From: Crocosphaera chwakensis CCY0110
Lineage (GTDB): Bacteria > Cyanobacteriota > Cyanobacteriia > Cyanobacteriales > Microcystaceae
Direction: 5' to 3'
Length of the DNA stretch: 26,861 nt
Assembly (NCBI RefSeq): GCF_000169335.1
Contig: NZ_AAXW01000058.1
Span: 1 to 26,861 of the forward strand
Part shown: positions 754 through 7,152 of the stretch, in pieces
How the letters are laid out: each line of letters begins with the position of its first letter
How positions within the stretch are numbered: the first letter of the stretch is position 1
Program-made: the position numbers and the translations under genes
Notes under the pieces: model-generated
The model's database searches: none
What the model saw: the letters and a program-made list of their open reading frames with translations, nothing else
What the model was told of the DNA's origin: nothing

Positions 754-2370
754 ATGCACATTCACTCAGCGTTGCTTTTTCATTTTGCTCAAGTTCCGAT
801 AAAAAGCGAAAATATTAAGCTTTTCATGACGCAACCGATTCCAGATACTACCATAAACCCTAAATCTTTAGAGGTGAAGACAGCACAAGCTACTGGAAAT
901 TTCTTATTAATTATTCTAATAGTGTTTTTAGCAATAGGTTTTATAGTAGCTCTTTTTAAAGAACCTTTAGCTGCTTGGATGAGAACAGCAGGAGAATCCC
1001 AAAAACAAGAAGAATCTAAACAAGCATCTCAACAAGAATTTGCAGTATCTCTAAATATTTCTGATGTTCGTACCGAAGACTATTTTCGCGCAATAATACA
1101 GGGAACAGTTTACCTCAAAATTGACACGACAAAAAATGTAACTTTATTAAAGTCTACAGATGGCATTATTACTAATGAGAGGGTTATTAGTTTTTTTAAA
1201 GATACCTTTGAAAGTGCTATAAGAGAAGCAGCTAGTAGTAAGGGATTAGACGAAATTTATAAAAATAGAGTGCAGTTTAGTACACAAGTAAAAGGAATCC
1301 TTGATGGAATTATTCAGGGTTCTTTTTTAATGATTAAGTACGTTGTTATCGGTAATGTGGATGAAAGTAATAATTATGATCCTGATAATTATTTTGATGC
1401 TCAAGCTCTTCAAAAACGAATGGAGACAATTCAATTAGCAATTCTAGCAACTCGCAGAGTAGAATTAGCTAATGAGAAACTGATTGAAACAGAAGAATTA
1501 GAGTTTCAAAAACAGCACTTACAGAATAATAAAACTCTGGAAACAGAAAAAATAACTGTTGAATTTGAAATTGAAAAGTATAAAAACTCTAAAGACAATG
1601 AACTAGAACAAGAAATAGAAACATCAGCAATTAATATGATGAAAACAATTGAAGAATATAAAGCAAGCGTAGAAGAAGCAATTCAAACTGCAAAAAGAAA
1701 GATAGAAAAGGGAGAAATTAATACAAGGATAGACATTGAACAACATAGAGCGATAGAAGAAGAGAAAGTGGTGATAGCAAATAAAGCTTTACAAATAATA
1801 CAAAAACAAGCAGAACAAGAAATAGAACAAGCAGAAATAACAGCTACCATAACAACAATACAAGCAGAAACCACGAAATTAGAAGAAGAAAGACTGCGAG
1901 ATATCAAACTTGAAACAAATACTACAGATATTGAAATGAAGCAAGTTGAGCGTGAAAATGAAAAAACTAAGAGTATTAAGGACAACAGGTTAGAGAATGA
2001 AGTCGCAATTATTCAACAGTTAGCTGGAGCAGAAGAAAAACGCTATAAAGCGGTACCAATTAGTGATTTGGATAGTTTAATTAAACTGATTCGAGAGGAA
2101 TTATTAGCCAAAGGACAGGATGCACAACTAACGATAATTAAACAAATTGTTGAATCCCTTGCCCCTAAAGAAAATGCTTTAGGGAATTCAAATGTTTACA
2201 CTTTTTCTAATAGTGATGCAGAAGATATAAATAAATTAATGTTTTCTACCAGTGGAATGCACCTCATTAATTCTTTTCTGAATAGTAAATTAGGGCAACA
2301 ATGGCAAAATAACCTAACTAATGATAATGGAGCAAGTGAAAATTTAGTAGAGATGACTAACGTAGAATAA
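754..2370 (+). CDS. Flotillin-like SPFH/band-7 membrane protein (YqiK/FloT-like)
   Basis: 538-aa ORF with GGAG about 7 nt upstream of the ATG. One N-terminal TM helix (FLLIILIVFLAIGFIVALF). SPFH-like core ends in NYDPDNYFDAQAL, which resembles the E. coli YqiK segment as I recall it (HFNPNNAFDAEGL). This is followed by a roughly 200-aa E/Q/I/A-rich coiled coil and a flotillin-type tail. Confidence 0.7.
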   Translation: MHIHSALLFHFAQVPIKSENIKLFMTQPIPDTTINPKSLEVKTAQATGNFLLIILIVFLAIGFIVALFKEPLAAWMRTAGESQKQEESKQASQQEFAVSLNISDVRTEDYFRAIIQGTVYLKIDTTKNVTLLKSTDGIITNERVISFFKDTFESAIREAASSKGLDEIYKNRVQFSTQVKGILDGIIQGSFLMIKYVVIGNVDESNNYDPDNYFDAQALQKRMETIQLAILATRRVELANEKLIETEELEFQKQHLQNNKTLETEKITVEFEIEKYKNSKDNELEQEIETSAINMMKTIEEYKASVEEAIQTAKRKIEKGEINTRIDIEQHRAIEEEKVVIANKALQIIQKQAEQEIEQAEITATITTIQAETTKLEEERLRDIKLETNTTDIEMKQVERENEKTKSIKDNRLENEVAIIQQLAGAEEKRYKAVPISDLDSLIKLIREELLAKGQDAQLTIIKQIVESLAPKENALGNSNVYTFSNSDAEDINKLMFSTSGMHLINSFLNSKLGQQWQNNLTNDNGASENLVEMTNVE

Positions 2371-2415
2371 TTTTTTTAACAATTACTAACTTATTTTTCT
2401 AGAGAGAATAAAACA

Positions 2416-3537
2416 ATGACAGAACAAAAAAAGACAATTCATGTCGGTTATTGGTGGGCTTTTTTATTAACCTTTGGATGTGGGTTGGCTTTAGTCGCAG
2501 TTTTTACTATCCTGATCAGTCACAGTAACCCTACTGCTGCTCCAATTTATTTATCTTTAACCTTAGCTGGTGCTTTAGGTGGTATTCTTTACTCTATCTC
2601 AATTGATGGTTCGTTAGAATTACCAAAATGGGGAGATAATGGACATAGTGTTCATATTGGTTCTATTGGAGAGATTTTTTTAGGCATTTGTGGTGCTTTT
2701 ATTGCCTATGTTGCTTTACCTGAAGAGCTTAAATCTTCTATCACAGAAGATACAACACAACTAGCACAGCAATTAGCCAACCAAGGACTAACACAAGCAC
2801 AAATAGAATTAATTCTTGAACAAGCTGCAGAACAAGTAGATAGTGCAACATCTAGTCTCATTGCCTTTGTGACAGGATTAGTGGGAGGATATGGAGGTAA
2901 AGCTATCCTTAATGCTGCTTTAGGAAGGGTTATCGGTCAGGTTGAAAATGTTAATCTAATTGAAGAAAATAACAAAAGACTGGCTAAAGAAGCTAAACAA
3001 CTGAGTGATGAACAATCTATTATTAAACAGGTAAATCAACAACTTCAAGAAGGACTACCCACGTCAGAAGTTTATGATCTGGTTGAAGAGATCAAAAATG
3101 CGCCCCAAGATGTTCAAGAAGAAGCTTTCAGAAGAGCAAAAGAAATCCGTCGCTTGAGTTGGCGAACCAAAGCCTTTAAATCAGAAATACCCAAAACCAT
3201 TCCTATTTTTGAAGCTTTAGTAGACAGCGATCCCAGTAACCATGAATATCACGCTCAACTGGGTTACGCTTATAAAGATTCTCTTCCCCCCAGACTAGAA
3301 GAAGCTATTACTCAACTTAATGAAGCGATCGCCTTACGAGGAAATCAAATCATCAGTACAACCTGGAAATATGAACTAAACCGAGCTTTAACTAGGATGA
3401 TGCAAGAAGAACAGCAAGTTAGTAGCAATGGTCAAATGTCTCCCTGGCGCGAAGAAATCTGGCAAGATATTGTTAAAGTTGATCGCAACTATGGCATCAC
3501 CAAAATTTTAATTGAACTTCAGTGCGTCAGTCCCTAG
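2416..3537 (+). CDS. Polytopic membrane protein with C-terminal TPR-like region; probable 5' fragment of an IS-interrupted gene
   Basis: 373-aa ORF 45 nt downstream of the flotillin-like gene. It has 3-4 predicted TM helices (WWAFLLTFGCGLALVAVFTILI, IYLSLTLAGALGGILYSI, IGEIFLGICGAFIAYVAL, LIAFVTGLVGGYGG), a coiled-coil linker and one TPR-like unit (HEYHAQLGYAYKDSLPPRLEEAITQLNEAIAL). Its stop codon (3535-3537) lies inside the IS left-end hairpin. Confidence 0.6.
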   Translation: MTEQKKTIHVGYWWAFLLTFGCGLALVAVFTILISHSNPTAAPIYLSLTLAGALGGILYSISIDGSLELPKWGDNGHSVHIGSIGEIFLGICGAFIAYVALPEELKSSITEDTTQLAQQLANQGLTQAQIELILEQAAEQVDSATSSLIAFVTGLVGGYGGKAILNAALGRVIGQVENVNLIEENNKRLAKEAKQLSDEQSIIKQVNQQLQEGLPTSEVYDLVEEIKNAPQDVQEEAFRRAKEIRRLSWRTKAFKSEIPKTIPIFEALVDSDPSNHEYHAQLGYAYKDSLPPRLEEAITQLNEAIALRGNQIISTTWKYELNRALTRMMQEEQQVSSNGQMSPWREEIWQDIVKVDRNYGITKILIELQCVSP

Positions 3538-3559
3538 TCTCAGCGTAGCGGACTAGGGA
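3531..3559 (+). repeat. IS left-end (LE) subterminal hairpin
   Basis: TCCCTAGTC (3531-3539) pairs perfectly with GACTAGGGA (3551-3559), with loop tcagcgtagcg. A second interrupted hairpin follows at 3570-3603 (GACAATTT...AAATTGTC with inner GGAC/GTCC). Confidence 0.7.
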
Positions 3560-3606
3560 AGGAAAGCACGACAATTTGAGGACTCAATGTCCGAAAAATT
3601 GTCAAA

Positions 3607-4017
3607 TTAACTTTTCGGAGCATCTTGGTTCTTGATATATTCTTTTAACTTTTCAATAGGTGCGCCACCAGAAGAAGTGACATAATAAGACTTAGACCAA
3701 AAAGAAACTTTGTCTTTATAAAACTTAGTTACTTGTTCAGGAAAGTCTTTTTTCATGACTCTAGCTGTCGAACTTTTAAGACACCCTGCAACTGTAGAAA
3801 TAGAGTTTTTAGGATGGAAATCTAATAAGATATGGACATGATCCATTTCACCCGAAAACTCTAGTAACTCACAATCCATTTTGCGAGATACTTGCCAAAT
3901 CATTTCTCTTAATCGCTCTAGCATTAGGGCGGTTATTACTTTGCGTCTATAGTGAGTAACAAAAACAAAGTGTAACCGCACACTAAAAACACTATGTGAC
4001 CCTTTTCTTGGTTTCAT
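3607..4017 (-). CDS. tnpA: IS200/IS605 family Y1 (HUH) transposase TnpA
   Basis: 136 aa. HUH motif in MDHVHILLDF. C-terminal catalytic Tyr region SKSYYVTSSGGAPIEKLKEYIKNQ. N-terminus KGSHSVFSVRLHFVFVTHYRRKVI is typical of the family. Confidence 0.9.
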   Translation of the reverse strand: MKPRKGSHSVFSVRLHFVFVTHYRRKVITALMLERLREMIWQVSRKMDCELLEFSGEMDHVHILLDFHPKNSISTVAGCLKSSTARVMKKDFPEQVTKFYKDKVSFWSKSYYVTSSGGAPIEKLKEYIKNQDAPKS

Positions 4018-4018
4018 C

Positions 4019-4048
4019 TTGACACCCTACAGGTAATTAGACTAAAAT
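4019..4048 (+). promoter_or_regulatory. Candidate sigma70-type promoter for tnpB
   Basis: TTGACA (4019-4024), an 18-nt spacer, then TAAAAT (4043-4048), located 31 nt upstream of the tnpB ATG in the tnpA-tnpB divergent spacer. Confidence 0.35.
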
Positions 4049-4078
4049 CATCATATCAGTTCTGTTGAGGTCGGCAAC

Positions 4079-5341
4079 ATGGCTACTAAAAGAATCACGT
4101 TTAGACTTTACCCAAATAAAGAACAAAATGAGAAACTTCATTATTGGAGACGTTTACACAAAGATTTATACAATGCTTGTGTAGTTAATCGAAAAACTCA
4201 ATACAAAAAGTTTGGTAAATCCATTAATTACTTTGACCAACAAAACTCATTACCTGAGTTTAAAAAAGATTGGCCAGAATACAAAGACCTTGGTAGCCAT
4301 GCCCTTCAAGCAACTGTAAAACGGGTTGATTTTGCTTTCCAACGTTTTTTCAAGATTAAATCAGGTTATCCGAAACTAAAGTCTTCAAGAAGATATAAAG
4401 GGTGGACTTATCCTGATAAAGCTGGTTGGAAAATAGACAGTAATGGACATCATGGAAAGTTGACACTTTCTAATTTTGGAACAATAAAGATGAGGGGTAA
4501 AGCAAGAGATTGGGGAACACCAAATACTTGCACTATCATCTTTAAACAAGGAAAATGGTACGCTTCTGTTACTGTTAGTTGTGATCCAAAACGAGAAACA
4601 GGTAAAGAGGCTTGTGGTATCGATTTTGGGACTCATCATGCACTTGCTTTTGACGATGGCACTGTTATTGATAATCCTAGATTTCTCAAACAATCACAGG
4701 ATAAAATCAACAAAACAGCAAAGAAATCTAGAAAGAAACGTGCAGGAAAAAAGGGAGTAAAAGGGTCTAGAAGATGGAAAAAAGCTGTTAGAAAAATCGG
4801 TAAGATTCAATCTTTAGTTGGTCGTCAAAGACAAAACTGGCATCATCAAGTTTCCACACAAATAGTTAGCTGTAATAGCTTGGTGGCAACTGAGAAATTA
4901 AACCTAAAAGGAATGACCAAAAAAGCTAAAAGAGGTAGCAAAAGAAAACGTCAAAAGACTGGATTAAATCGGTCAATTCTTGACGTTGGAATTGGTAACT
5001 TAAAATCATTAATAAAAAGCAAAGTTACCGAAGCAGGTGGGTTTTACATTGAGGTTCCTACTCGAAAAGTTAAGCCATCTCAGACTTGTCCTAATTGTGG
5101 TCATCAAAAGAAAAAGACATTAGCAGAACGCCAGCACAACTGCGAAAAGTGCCTTTATAGTTGCGACAGAGATGTTGCATCAGCCCAGGTGTGTTTAAAC
5201 TGGGCAAGGGGGCAGGAACTGTCCTCTTTAGACGTAGAGTCGCCTAGCTCTACTTTATGCGGAAGCATGAGGCAACTAGGGGCGAAAAAGCACAACAATG
5301 CAAAGAAGCGTCAGAAACATCTAGCTCAACAAAGTGGCTAG
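4079..5341 (+). CDS. tnpB: TnpB (IS605 OrfB) RNA-guided RuvC-type endonuclease
   Basis: 420 aa. RuvC triad contexts are CGIDFGTHH (D), VATEKLNLKGM (E) and CDRDVASAQ (D). Zinc ribbon CPNCGH...CEKCLYSC. No internal stops, so it appears intact. Confidence 0.9.
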   Translation: MATKRITFRLYPNKEQNEKLHYWRRLHKDLYNACVVNRKTQYKKFGKSINYFDQQNSLPEFKKDWPEYKDLGSHALQATVKRVDFAFQRFFKIKSGYPKLKSSRRYKGWTYPDKAGWKIDSNGHHGKLTLSNFGTIKMRGKARDWGTPNTCTIIFKQGKWYASVTVSCDPKRETGKEACGIDFGTHHALAFDDGTVIDNPRFLKQSQDKINKTAKKSRKKRAGKKGVKGSRRWKKAVRKIGKIQSLVGRQRQNWHHQVSTQIVSCNSLVATEKLNLKGMTKKAKRGSKRKRQKTGLNRSILDVGIGNLKSLIKSKVTEAGGFYIEVPTRKVKPSQTCPNCGHQKKKTLAERQHNCEKCLYSCDRDVASAQVCLNWARGQELSSLDVESPSSTLCGSMRQLGAKKHNNAKKRQKHLAQQSG

Positions 5342-5368
5342 ATGTAGTTCATAGCAAAGACGAAGCCG
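5200..5368 (+). ncRNA. Predicted TnpB omega RNA (reRNA) scaffold plus flanking guide; extent approximate
   Basis: In characterised TnpB systems the guide RNA derives from the 3' end of tnpB through the right end, plus about 16 nt of flank. Local stems visible here are GTAGAG/CTCTAC (5234-5253), ATGC-GGAA-GCAT (5257-5268) and the RE hairpin (5317-5345). Confidence 0.4.
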
Positions 5369-7152
5369 TTGATATTCCCCTCAAAGATTGGTTAGAAATC
5401 AATCAGGATTGGATTAAACAACAAAGTGGAGGAACCCGTTTACTCGAAAAAGCCTTTAACGTTGCTCTCAGTCCAACCCCTCTTATTGAACCTGATATTG
5501 TAGAAAGAAATGGTGACAAAATAGGGATATTAAGAGGTCGCAAGGATGTTGAAACCCTCAAAGAAGAAGCCAAGTCAGGATCTGTAGGGACGCAGTTACT
5601 CAGAAGGAAGCGCAGTTCTAAATCTGATTTACTTCGCAAAAACACCAACTGGAAAACAGTTCCCTCTGGTACAAAAATTGAAGCAACTCACCTCACCTAC
5701 CTTAAACGTTACACTCTTAGCGCATTAGACCTTCAAGATGATCAAAAAGTTGAAGTTCCCGTCGGAAAAGATTACTATGTTCGTCAATATGCACCGACAG
5801 CAGACGGTCATTGCTTAGTGGAATTAGATTATGAGTCTGGGGTTTGGTATATTTGGCCAAGTCATTGGCATTTACCTTGGGAAGACCAGAATAAAGACAA
5901 TAGCCAAGAGTTATCCTCTAGTACAAGTGCAGTCATAGCCAAAAAGACTACAACAGATATTGTCACTCGCCAGCAAGCGAAATCAGTTTATGGACGAACT
6001 TTAACCGATCAACAATTTAACGACTTAAACGACTGTTTGAGGCGATTTGAGATTAATACCGTACCACGAGTCAGACATTTTCTCAGCCAAACTGCTCATG
6101 AAAGTGGGGGTTTAAAGTGGATGAAGGAAATTTGGGGACCAACTTCTGCACAGCGAAGTTATGATCCGCCTCATCGTAAAGCAAAAGAACTAGGCAATAC
6201 AAACATGGGTGATGGGAAAAAATATCGAGGCGGTGGTGTTATTCAATTAACGGGTAAATATAATTATCAAAAGTTTGCTAACTTTATTGATGATCCTAAA
6301 GTTATGCAAGGGGCAGATTATGTGGGTAGTATTTACCCTTTTAGTAGTGCCGGTTTTTGGTGGAAAAATAATAATATGAATGCACTGTGCGATGCAGGTG
6401 GAACTGTTAAGCAAGTCACCAGAAAAGTCAATGGTGGTTATAACGGACTCAGCGATCGTCAACGTTACTATGATAAAGCGGATCAGATAATCAAGTCGAT
6501 TCCTACTCCGAGTCCTGATGAGAAGGTAGAACCTATTGACAACCTGCCAGTTCCTATCATCGATCCATTAGCCAAGGATTACAATAATCCAGAAGCAGTT
6601 AAACGACAAATTGATAGATTAAGCAAATACTTGTCACCCGGAAAAACCTTAAATCTGGATGTCAAAACCAATTATTTTAGTCAACGAGACAACTATACTC
6701 AACCTCATCGGACTTGCAATAGTAGTAGTAATGCTATGTACTTAGATTGGTTACTGCGAGTTACCGGTAAACCAGGTTTAGGGGGAGATAATAACTATCT
6801 TCAAAAAGTTCTGGCAAAAGGGGATACGATTTATCATGGAATTCACACTCAAATCATCAAACAGTATGGTTTCAACACAAAATGGAATACAGATCGAGAT
6901 TTACCGTTTATTCATGATTTAATTAAGGCCGGTTTTCCTGTTCCTGTTAATCTACTTCATCGTGGCACTATTTCTGCTCCAACAGGCGGTCATGTCATTA
7001 TGTTGATTGGCTATAAAAATGATTCTTGGATTGCCCATGATCCCTACGGTACTTTAGAATCAAACTATACAGTCCATAACGGGGCTTATAGTCGTATCAG
7101 TGAACGAGAATTTAAAGCCAGGTGGCAAGGGGGTTACAGAATGTTAGCCTAA
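5257..7152 (+). CDS. GH19 (chitinase/lysozyme-like, COG3179-type) plus C39-like cysteine peptidase protein; probable 3' fragment of the IS-interrupted gene
   Basis: GH19 motifs: FLSQTAHESGGLKWMKEIWG, GDGKKYRGGGVIQLTGKYNY, SAGFWW, VNGGYNGLSDRQ. C39_2-like motifs: HRTCNSSSNAMYLDW (Cys), GGHVIMLIGY (His), HDPYG (Asp). The only in-frame ATG (5257) lies inside the IS. The next canonical start codon in frame is GTG at 5818. Confidence 0.7.
   Translation: MRKHEATRGEKAQQCKEASETSSSTKWLDVVHSKDEAVDIPLKDWLEINQDWIKQQSGGTRLLEKAFNVALSPTPLIEPDIVERNGDKIGILRGRKDVETLKEEAKSGSVGTQLLRRKRSSKSDLLRKNTNWKTVPSGTKIEATHLTYLKRYTLSALDLQDDQKVEVPVGKDYYVRQYAPTADGHCLVELDYESGVWYIWPSHWHLPWEDQNKDNSQELSSSTSAVIAKKTTTDIVTRQQAKSVYGRTLTDQQFNDLNDCLRRFEINTVPRVRHFLSQTAHESGGLKWMKEIWGPTSAQRSYDPPHRKAKELGNTNMGDGKKYRGGGVIQLTGKYNYQKFANFIDDPKVMQGADYVGSIYPFSSAGFWWKNNNMNALCDAGGTVKQVTRKVNGGYNGLSDRQRYYDKADQIIKSIPTPSPDEKVEPIDNLPVPIIDPLAKDYNNPEAVKRQIDRLSKYLSPGKTLNLDVKTNYFSQRDNYTQPHRTCNSSSNAMYLDWLLRVTGKPGLGGDNNYLQKVLAKGDTIYHGIHTQIIKQYGFNTKWNTDRDLPFIHDLIKAGFPVPVNLLHRGTISAPTGGHVIMLIGYKNDSWIAHDPYGTLESNYTVHNGAYSRISEREFKARWQGGYRMLA
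5317..5345 (+). repeat. IS right-end (RE) subterminal hairpin
   Basis: ACATCTAGC (5317-5325) pairs perfectly with GCTAGATGT (5337-5345). Loop tcaacaaagtg is 11 nt, the same length as the LE loop tcagcgtagcg and similar to it. It is preceded by GCGTCAGAA, compared with GCGTCAG at the LE. Confidence 0.7.

Follow-up and report, generated by a model that had tools for sequence, protein, structure and literature searches.

A putative membrane-anchored peptidoglycan hydrolase gene of Crocosphaera chwakensis CCY0110 interrupted by an IS200/IS605-family insertion sequence

Results

The interrupted locus

Two neighbouring open reading frames (ORFs) of the cyanobacterium Crocosphaera chwakensis CCY0110 are separated by an insertion sequence (IS) of the IS200/IS605 family. 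They lie in a stretch of 26,861 nucleotides (NZ_AAXW01000058.1, positions 1 to 26,861, forward strand), hereafter the window, which is contig C106 of a 5.88-Mb draft genome in 163 contigs. In this study, we followed up an original prediction, made from the sequence, that both ORFs derive from a single gene of about 970 codons split by the element. Our analysis makes it almost certain that they are the two parts of a 966-amino-acid gene encoding a membrane-anchored, two-headed peptidoglycan hydrolase, which was recently interrupted by a peel-and-paste insertion. The event is an ordinary insertional inactivation by an IS, a recent instance of a well-known kind. The features of the interrupted locus are the following:

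2416-3537, + strand: 5' ORF, 373 amino acids
5257-7152, + strand: 3' ORF, 631 amino acids
2416-3516, + strand: 5' part of the split gene, codons 1-367 (ORF; aligns to the N-terminal module of the orthologues; hydropathy; AlphaFold2 model of an orthologue)
3517-5352, + strand: IS200/IS605-family insertion sequence, 1836 nucleotides or 612 codons (other genomic copies; empty orthologous site)
3517-3537, + strand: IS-encoded LQCVSP (6 codons) and TAG stop, which end the N-terminal product (ORF listing)
5257-5352, + strand: stretch of 32 IS-encoded codons opened by an IS-borne ATG, in phase with the 3' gene fragment (ORF listing)
5353-7152, + strand: 3' part of the split gene, codons 368-966 and stop (open frame; colinear with the orthologues)

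When positions 2416-3516 are joined to 5353-7152, one open frame of 966 amino acids results, which reads ...NYGITKILIE/SKDEAVDIPL... across the junction, as the proposed KILIE/SKDEAVD had anticipated. The insertion point falls between codons 367 and 368 (E367/S368) and, apart from the insertion, the frame is undamaged from end to end. The shared phase claimed for the flanking ORFs was also borne out, as positions 2416, 5257 and 5353 are all 1 modulo 3. The stop codon of the 5' ORF (TAG, 3535-3537) lies in the 5' arm of the left-end hairpin of the element, where it had been placed.

On the 3' side, the run of about 155 start-less codons reported past the IS was found again: none of the 155 in-frame codons at positions 5353-5817 is an ATG, GTG or TTG. 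Beyond the IS, the frame offers its earliest start at GTG 5818. The first native in-frame ATG, at 6121, is located 3' of the catalytic-Glu motif of the GH19 domain (approximately 6094-6108). The ATG at 5257 lies inside the IS and upstream of the right-end hairpin, as had been described, and is out of frame within tnpB. Contrary to what had also been stated, it is not the only ATG of its ORF, since internal Met codons occur from 6121 on; it is the only one upstream of that position.

The insertion sequence and its copies

The content and ends of the element are as follows:

3512-3516, + strand: target motif TTGAA (core TGAA), directly 5' of the left end (left flanks of genomic copies; role as transposon-associated motif, TAM, by analogy with ISDra2)
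3531-3559, + strand: left-end subterminal hairpin with a 9-bp stem, arms TCCCTAGTC (3531-3539) and GACTAGGGA (3551-3559) (single-stranded DNA folding, z-score -3.9)
3607-4017, - strand: tnpA, Y1 (HUH) transposase, 136 amino acids (PF01797, 7.6e-36, model positions 1-121 of 121)
4019-4048, + strand: promoter-like site TTGACA-18-TAAAAT upstream of tnpB, 11 of 12 matches (consensus match only)
4079-5341, + strand: tnpB, RNA-guided nuclease homologue, 420 amino acids (PF01385, PF07282, PF12323; structures of ISDra2 TnpB)
5317-5345, + strand: right-end subterminal hairpin with a 9-bp stem, arms ACATCTAGC (5317-5325) and GCTAGATGT (5337-5345) (single-stranded DNA folding)

We mapped the ends of the IS from five left-end and five right-end junctions within the same genome. 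On the left side, TGAA immediately precedes the element in all five cases (ttgaa in three, gtgaa in one and ctgaa in one), followed by CTTCAGTGCG of the IS, and all five right ends finish with ...GTAGTTCAT, at 5352 in the window, with divergence immediately after. Because these flanks and ends are shared across copies, the element can be delimited as 3517-5352. These ends coincide exactly with the proposed boundaries, after TTGAA at 3516 and after TTCAT at 5352, and give a length of 1836 nucleotides, which is divisible by three; an indivisible length had been named as a ground for rejecting the original prediction. No target-site duplication is present, as the rejoined flanks neither gain nor lose a base relative to intact orthologous DNA and protein. 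The hallmarks of the IS200/IS605 family are found together in this element, namely a Y1 TnpA, subterminal hairpins without terminal inverted repeats, insertion 3' of a fixed motif and no duplication of the target.

Both element-encoded proteins look intact. TnpA shows the HVHIL (HUH) and SYYV motifs. TnpB residues 4-369 match ISDra2 TnpB (8EXA/8BF8) at 1e-21; the alignment includes GIDFG, ATEKLN and CDRD, the motifs of the RuvC triad, and TnpB retains the cysteines of the zinc finger. The two genes diverge from a spacer of 61 nucleotides, in which an opposite-strand promoter-like site for tnpA with an extended -10 element (4077-4050) overlaps that of tnpB. An Rfam scan at permissive thresholds gave no match to an omega-RNA or any other family in the IS, its 3' end included.

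The genome holds three complete copies of the IS (that of the window, one on contig C112 and one on C143) and four partial ones at the ends of contigs (two on C55, one on C143 and one on C10), which are 99-100% identical. The C112 copy is identical to that of the window. The C143 copy carries one extra G at the equivalent of position 4430, which brings it to 1837 nucleotides and shifts the frame of tnpB. Because this sister copy is not a multiple of three, the divisibility of the window copy is incidental; it is a consistency check only, without functional meaning. A functional significance of the multiple-of-three length was considered and rejected on this ground and because seamless excision restores the frame whatever the length of the element.

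Related copies at 89-93% identity, together with decayed remnants, occur in congeneric species. The IS family is resident in the genus and has been recently active in the CCY0110 genome. At one locus of the congeneric genome G305 (contig C56, 15690-16100), only left-end-like and right-end-like IS segments are left, at approximately 81% identity, in what looks like a miniature non-autonomous derivative resembling palindrome-associated transposable elements (PATE-like).

All three complete copies are located in coding frames. On C143 (L003, IS at approximately 1505-3341 of the locus), the IS interrupts a gene for a Fur-family regulator on the opposite strand, whose rejoined flanks give a full-length PF01475 match (1.8e-23). 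On C112 (L002, reverse strand), it interrupts a frame of 139 amino acids with a weak, sub-threshold match to a HicB-like antitoxin (PF15970, 6.2e-5). This distribution bears on whether the IS could be a reversible or regulated on/off switch that, by its excision, would control a potentially self-lytic enzyme, with an outcome comparable to that of the developmentally excised elements in nifD, fdxN or hupL of heterocystous cyanobacteria. Excision would give a perfect frame, and the lytic activities encoded may be costly. However, the presence of the same IS in at least two other, unrelated coding frames (the Fur-family gene and the weakly HicB-like one) is what random hits on TGAA are expected to produce. 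In addition, no orthologue bears an element at the site, the transposase is a generic Y1 enzyme rather than a dedicated site-specific recombinase, and TnpB should work against removal of the IS. We regard a switch as extremely unlikely.

Cyanobacteria of this group are commonly polyploid, and an IS-bearing and an intact allele might coexist in the chromosome copies of the cell or in the culture, the assembly having taken the path through the IS; the organism would then not be truly null. The seamless excision of IS200/IS605 elements (PMC8612924) would favour such a mixture, and other copies of the IS coincide with breaks in the draft genome, a sign that repeats troubled the assembler. On the other hand, the contig runs continuously through both junctions, and homing by TnpB would tend to turn empty sites back into IS-bearing ones. 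Mixed alleles appear improbable to us.

One continuous gene in relatives

Comparison with IS-free orthologous loci had been fixed in advance as a test able to overturn the original prediction. We searched 300 genomes of the order in all six frames and, separately, the 13 other genomes of the genus. The first search yielded uninterrupted open frames over both halves in G029 (931 amino acids), G150 (935) and G228 (949). Within the genus, G308 shows 82% identity across the junction (1.5e-194; open frame of 1068 amino acids, protein of 1056), G311 78% identity (1.3e-184; open frame of 945 amino acids, ORF of 933, with GH19 and C39-like domains) and G304 57% identity (open frame of 965 amino acids). 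The G311 ORF is exactly the protein P0002, named 'Crocosphaera sp. glycoside hydrolase family 19 protein' at NCBI. Continuous orthologue proteins have 923 amino acids in G029, 929 in G150 and 1045 in Microcystis. The orthologues thus found belong to the same genus, to Prochloraceae and to Microcystis, and span approximately 920-1,060 amino acids.

In the multiple alignment, none of the orthologues has a gap at the junction, and E367, V373, D374, K378, W380 and L381 are invariant. The DNA is equally clear: the nearest intact locus reads aaaattttaatCgaa/agcCaagacgaagccgtt where the window flanks read aaaattttaattgaa/agcaaagacgaagccgtt; the intact site itself is ...AATCGAA/AGCCAAGAC... Neither search returned an orthologue with an element at the equivalent site.

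The assembly itself calls two ORFs, as it would if two natively separate genes had an IS between them. However, in each relative that lacks the IS a single uninterrupted frame runs across the site, the residues to either side of the junction are conserved, and the 3' ORF has no native start over 155 codons. The orthologue alignment and the DNA of the intact locus rule out two native genes, each with its own stop and start, and we give that reading practically no credence. The single gene of about 970 codons thereby stands, as a rejoined frame of 966 amino acids that aligns without gaps to uninterrupted orthologues. A search of the same genome found no intact paralogue elsewhere; therefore, the copy disrupted is the only one. 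The otherwise undamaged frame and the 99-100% identity among the IS copies mark the event as recent.

Domains of the encoded protein

The intact protein would comprise, in this order, N-terminal transmembrane (TM) helices, a coiled coil, a helical TPR-like domain, an SH3-like module, a GH19 glycosidase and a C39-like peptidase. The 5' part of the split gene spans the TM helices, the coiled coil and most of the helical domain. The following regions could be delimited:

2437-2925, + strand: membrane region, residues 8-170 (Kyte-Doolittle scan; AlphaFold2 helices of P0002)
5674-5886, + strand: beta-rich SH3-like module, residues ~475-545 (conserved block TYLK...DGHCLVELDYG.G.WY.W..HW.LPW throughout the family; P0002 beta strands 442-508)
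6025-6486, + strand: GH19 endolysin-type glycosidase, AHESG at residues 613-617 (phmmer, Foldseek)
6673-7047, + strand: C39-like (papain-fold) peptidase domain (PF13529, 6.7e-9, 36.9 bits against a cut-off of 24, model positions 5-143 of 143)

Hydropathy points to three strong TM helices, at residues ~12-34, 43-62 and 80-100, and to a Gly-rich amphipathic helix at ~147-170. The AlphaFold2 model of the intact orthologue P0002, computed from a 38-sequence alignment (mean predicted local distance difference test score, pLDDT, of 71.8), places helices at 10-38, 53-74, 93-109 and 124-140 in this region. In the model, a long helix follows the TM helices, then a domain of helical repeats reaching approximately residue 376, and then a disordered linker; in the catalytic region, the SH3-like module is beta-rich, the GH19 domain helical and the C-terminal domain alpha/beta. 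The equivalent of the junction in P0002, E341/S342, lies within the well-folded helical domain and not in the linker. Hence, the 373-amino-acid stub lacks the last helices of that domain together with all catalytic parts.

The GH19 assignment is strong. The domain matches the PWe2 endolysin (PDB 9ms7) at 4.3e-30 by phmmer, with AHESG aligned, and Foldseek with the orthologue model retrieves GH19 endolysins (9ms7, 9eoi and 4ok7; E 4e-10 to 4e-7) and chitinases, with a target-normalised TM-score of 0.78. PF00182 reaches 19.1 bits in the window protein (cut-off 25.5) and 42.5 bits (8.5e-11) in the orthologue at L009. The best match of the C39-like domain among solved structures is a weak one to 3erv, a putative C39-like peptidase (E 0.58). 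Its RTCNSSSNAMY and GGH.IML motifs, candidate sites of the catalytic Cys/His dyad, are conserved in all orthologues with GH19 and C39 domains. The SH3-like module has no family match, and its label is our inference.

From the architecture first proposed, the polytopic membrane region, the GH19 domain and the C39-like peptidase were recovered, but the TPR was seen below threshold only: PF13414 scores 19.6 bits, under the cut-off of 26.8, and Foldseek matches of the helical-repeat model to TPR proteins are weak (E ~0.02-0.04).

The SPFH-linked cassette

The split gene has a conserved partner directly upstream:

754-2370, + strand: SPFH/Band 7 coiled-coil gene (PF01145, 2.8e-9)

The SPFH gene is also found directly 5' of the orthologues at L009, L029, L030, L032 and L033 and at L040/L041 of Microcystis aeruginosa. 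The cassette of an SPFH gene and a large membrane-anchored hydrolase (754-7152 in the window) occurs in Crocosphaera, in a Prochloraceae metagenome-assembled genome and in Microcystis aeruginosa. The conserved N-terminal module (residues 150-520) is shared by about 80 cyanobacterial proteins (P0001-P0079) of 760-1180 amino acids, among which the C-terminal lytic domains vary: GH19 with C39, a PF11860 N-acetylmuramidase, a GH24 lysozyme, an M15A peptidase or SLT. The closest relative, of the same genus and 82% identical in the N-terminal module, bears a different lytic head. Such swapping of heads on a conserved module of TM, coiled-coil, TPR-like and SH3-like parts resembles the pattern of polymorphic effectors. 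In the Microcystis orthologue, the SH3-like module is duplicated.

PADLOC gave no significant match for the SPFH protein, for an intact orthologue or for either fragment; its only hit was a stray one to LmuA (1.6e-3). Tentatively, and with rather low confidence, we propose that the cassette joins an SPFH/flotillin-like scaffold to interchangeable lytic heads in a new module for envelope lysis, remodelling or conflict, of which CCY0110 would be a natural null locked by TnpB homing.

Expression of the two fragments

The native start and its promoter-proximal context now drive only the 373-residue membrane/TPR stub (367 native and 6 IS-encoded residues), and the catalytic 3' part has lost its promoter-proximal native start. 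The original prediction had also suggested that a lysin fragment without TM segments could be expressed from the ATG within the IS. Such a product, read from ATG 5257 or GTG 5818 by read-through from tnpB, would be a soluble protein with the SH3-like, GH19 and C39-like parts and might have acquired a function of its own. The 32 IS-encoded codons are in frame with it, a promoter-like site lies 5' of tnpB and no terminator-like site lies ahead of the fragment. However, neither start has a Shine-Dalgarno-like motif within 25 nucleotides upstream, and ATG 5257 is out of frame within tnpB. Moreover, with neither a TM segment nor a signal peptide, the product would stay in the cytoplasm, away from peptidoglycan, and the in-frame arrangement is a one-in-three coincidence; the sister copy on C143 has 1837 nucleotides. 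From the sequence, the idea of an expressed lysin fragment is a weak one, without positive support, and we consider a functional fragment very unlikely.

Discussion

Our results indicate that the hydrolase gene of CCY0110 was split when a 1836-nucleotide IS with divergent tnpA and tnpB, by a peel-and-paste mechanism, inserted 3' of TTGAA, between codons 367 and 368. With the catalytic half cut off from its native start, we infer that the gene is functionally null in this strain. Several points weigh against this reading of the locus. Homogeneity of the allele across the chromosome copies and silence of the 3' fragment are presumptions from the assembled sequence. The site scan found no terminator-like site between tnpB and the 3' fragment and, because a promoter-like site precedes tnpB, this fragment may be transcribed. 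Finally, the assignment of the TTGAA site as TAM plus guide target is transferred from ISDra2, and the element has no omega-RNA match in Rfam.

Work on ISDra2 is our source for the role of the TAM in TnpB targeting, for the homing mechanism and for the seamless excision of IS200/IS605 elements (PMC8612924). Because such elements leave no footprint, precise excision would be expected to return the gene to its intact form. The empty site would then read TTGAA and AGCAAAGACGAAGCC... (also TTGAA+AGCAAAGACGAAGCCG), which would represent the TAM and guide target of the element's own TnpB and omega-RNA. Homing would therefore be expected to counter reversion, as shown for ISDra2 (PMC8612924).

These findings have direct consequences for annotation. 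The 'hypothetical' ORFs 2416-3537 and 5257-7152 should be annotated jointly, as a single pseudogene disrupted by an IS, and the 32 N-terminal residues of ORF 5257-7152 should be recognized as IS sequence. The locus is a textbook case of a recent IS200/IS605 burst disrupting Crocosphaera genes, and it provides a natural loss-of-function allele of an uncharacterised family of SPFH-linked peptidoglycan hydrolases. It also offers a native pair of TAM (TTGAA) and guide with which TnpB homing could be studied in a cyanobacterium. In our view, the host cassette is a more interesting object than the insertion.

As to known systems, the element is closest to ISDra2 of Deinococcus radiodurans and to the IS605/IS608 group. 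It shares with them a Y1 HUH TnpA together with TnpB, and subterminal hairpins in place of inverted repeats. Like ISDra2 and IS608, it inserts 3' of a fixed motif of 4-5 nucleotides without target duplication, and its TnpB aligns to that of ISDra2 with the RuvC triad present. The target motif differs, being TTGAT in ISDra2, TTAC in IS608 and (T)TGAA here. The gene order, with tnpA divergent from tnpB, is that of IS605 and not the co-directional, overlapping one. Unlike in ISDra2, the omega-RNA and nuclease activity of this element are predicted only.

In heterocystous cyanobacteria, nifD, fdxN and hupL are interrupted by elements that are excised during development. The present case is similar in that a mobile element interrupts a cyanobacterial gene in a frame-restoring fashion. 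However, those elements have dedicated site-specific recombinases of their own and a conserved position, whereas the IS described here is generic, multi-copy and absent from all the orthologous loci that we examined.

The hydrolase, in turn, can be compared with the type VI secretion system effector TseP (8xcl), in which two peptidoglycan-targeting activities are combined in one chain, as is predicted for the window protein. The GH19-like similarity between them reaches 4.7e-13 by phmmer and is also detected by Foldseek. Unlike TseP, the window protein has an N-terminal polytopic membrane anchor and is free of any type VI secretion context or marker, and no adjacent immunity gene is seen in the window. 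The nearest counterparts of the glycosidase itself are the GH19 phage endolysins of PWe2 (9ms7), SPN1S (4ok7) and Pseudomonas (9eoi), which it matches in sequence, in fold and in the AHESG motif with the catalytic Glu. In contrast to these enzymes, the split gene encodes GH19 as a single module within a chromosomal membrane protein of 966 amino acids that has a second, C39-like head, and it lies outside any phage lysis cassette, paired with an SPFH gene.

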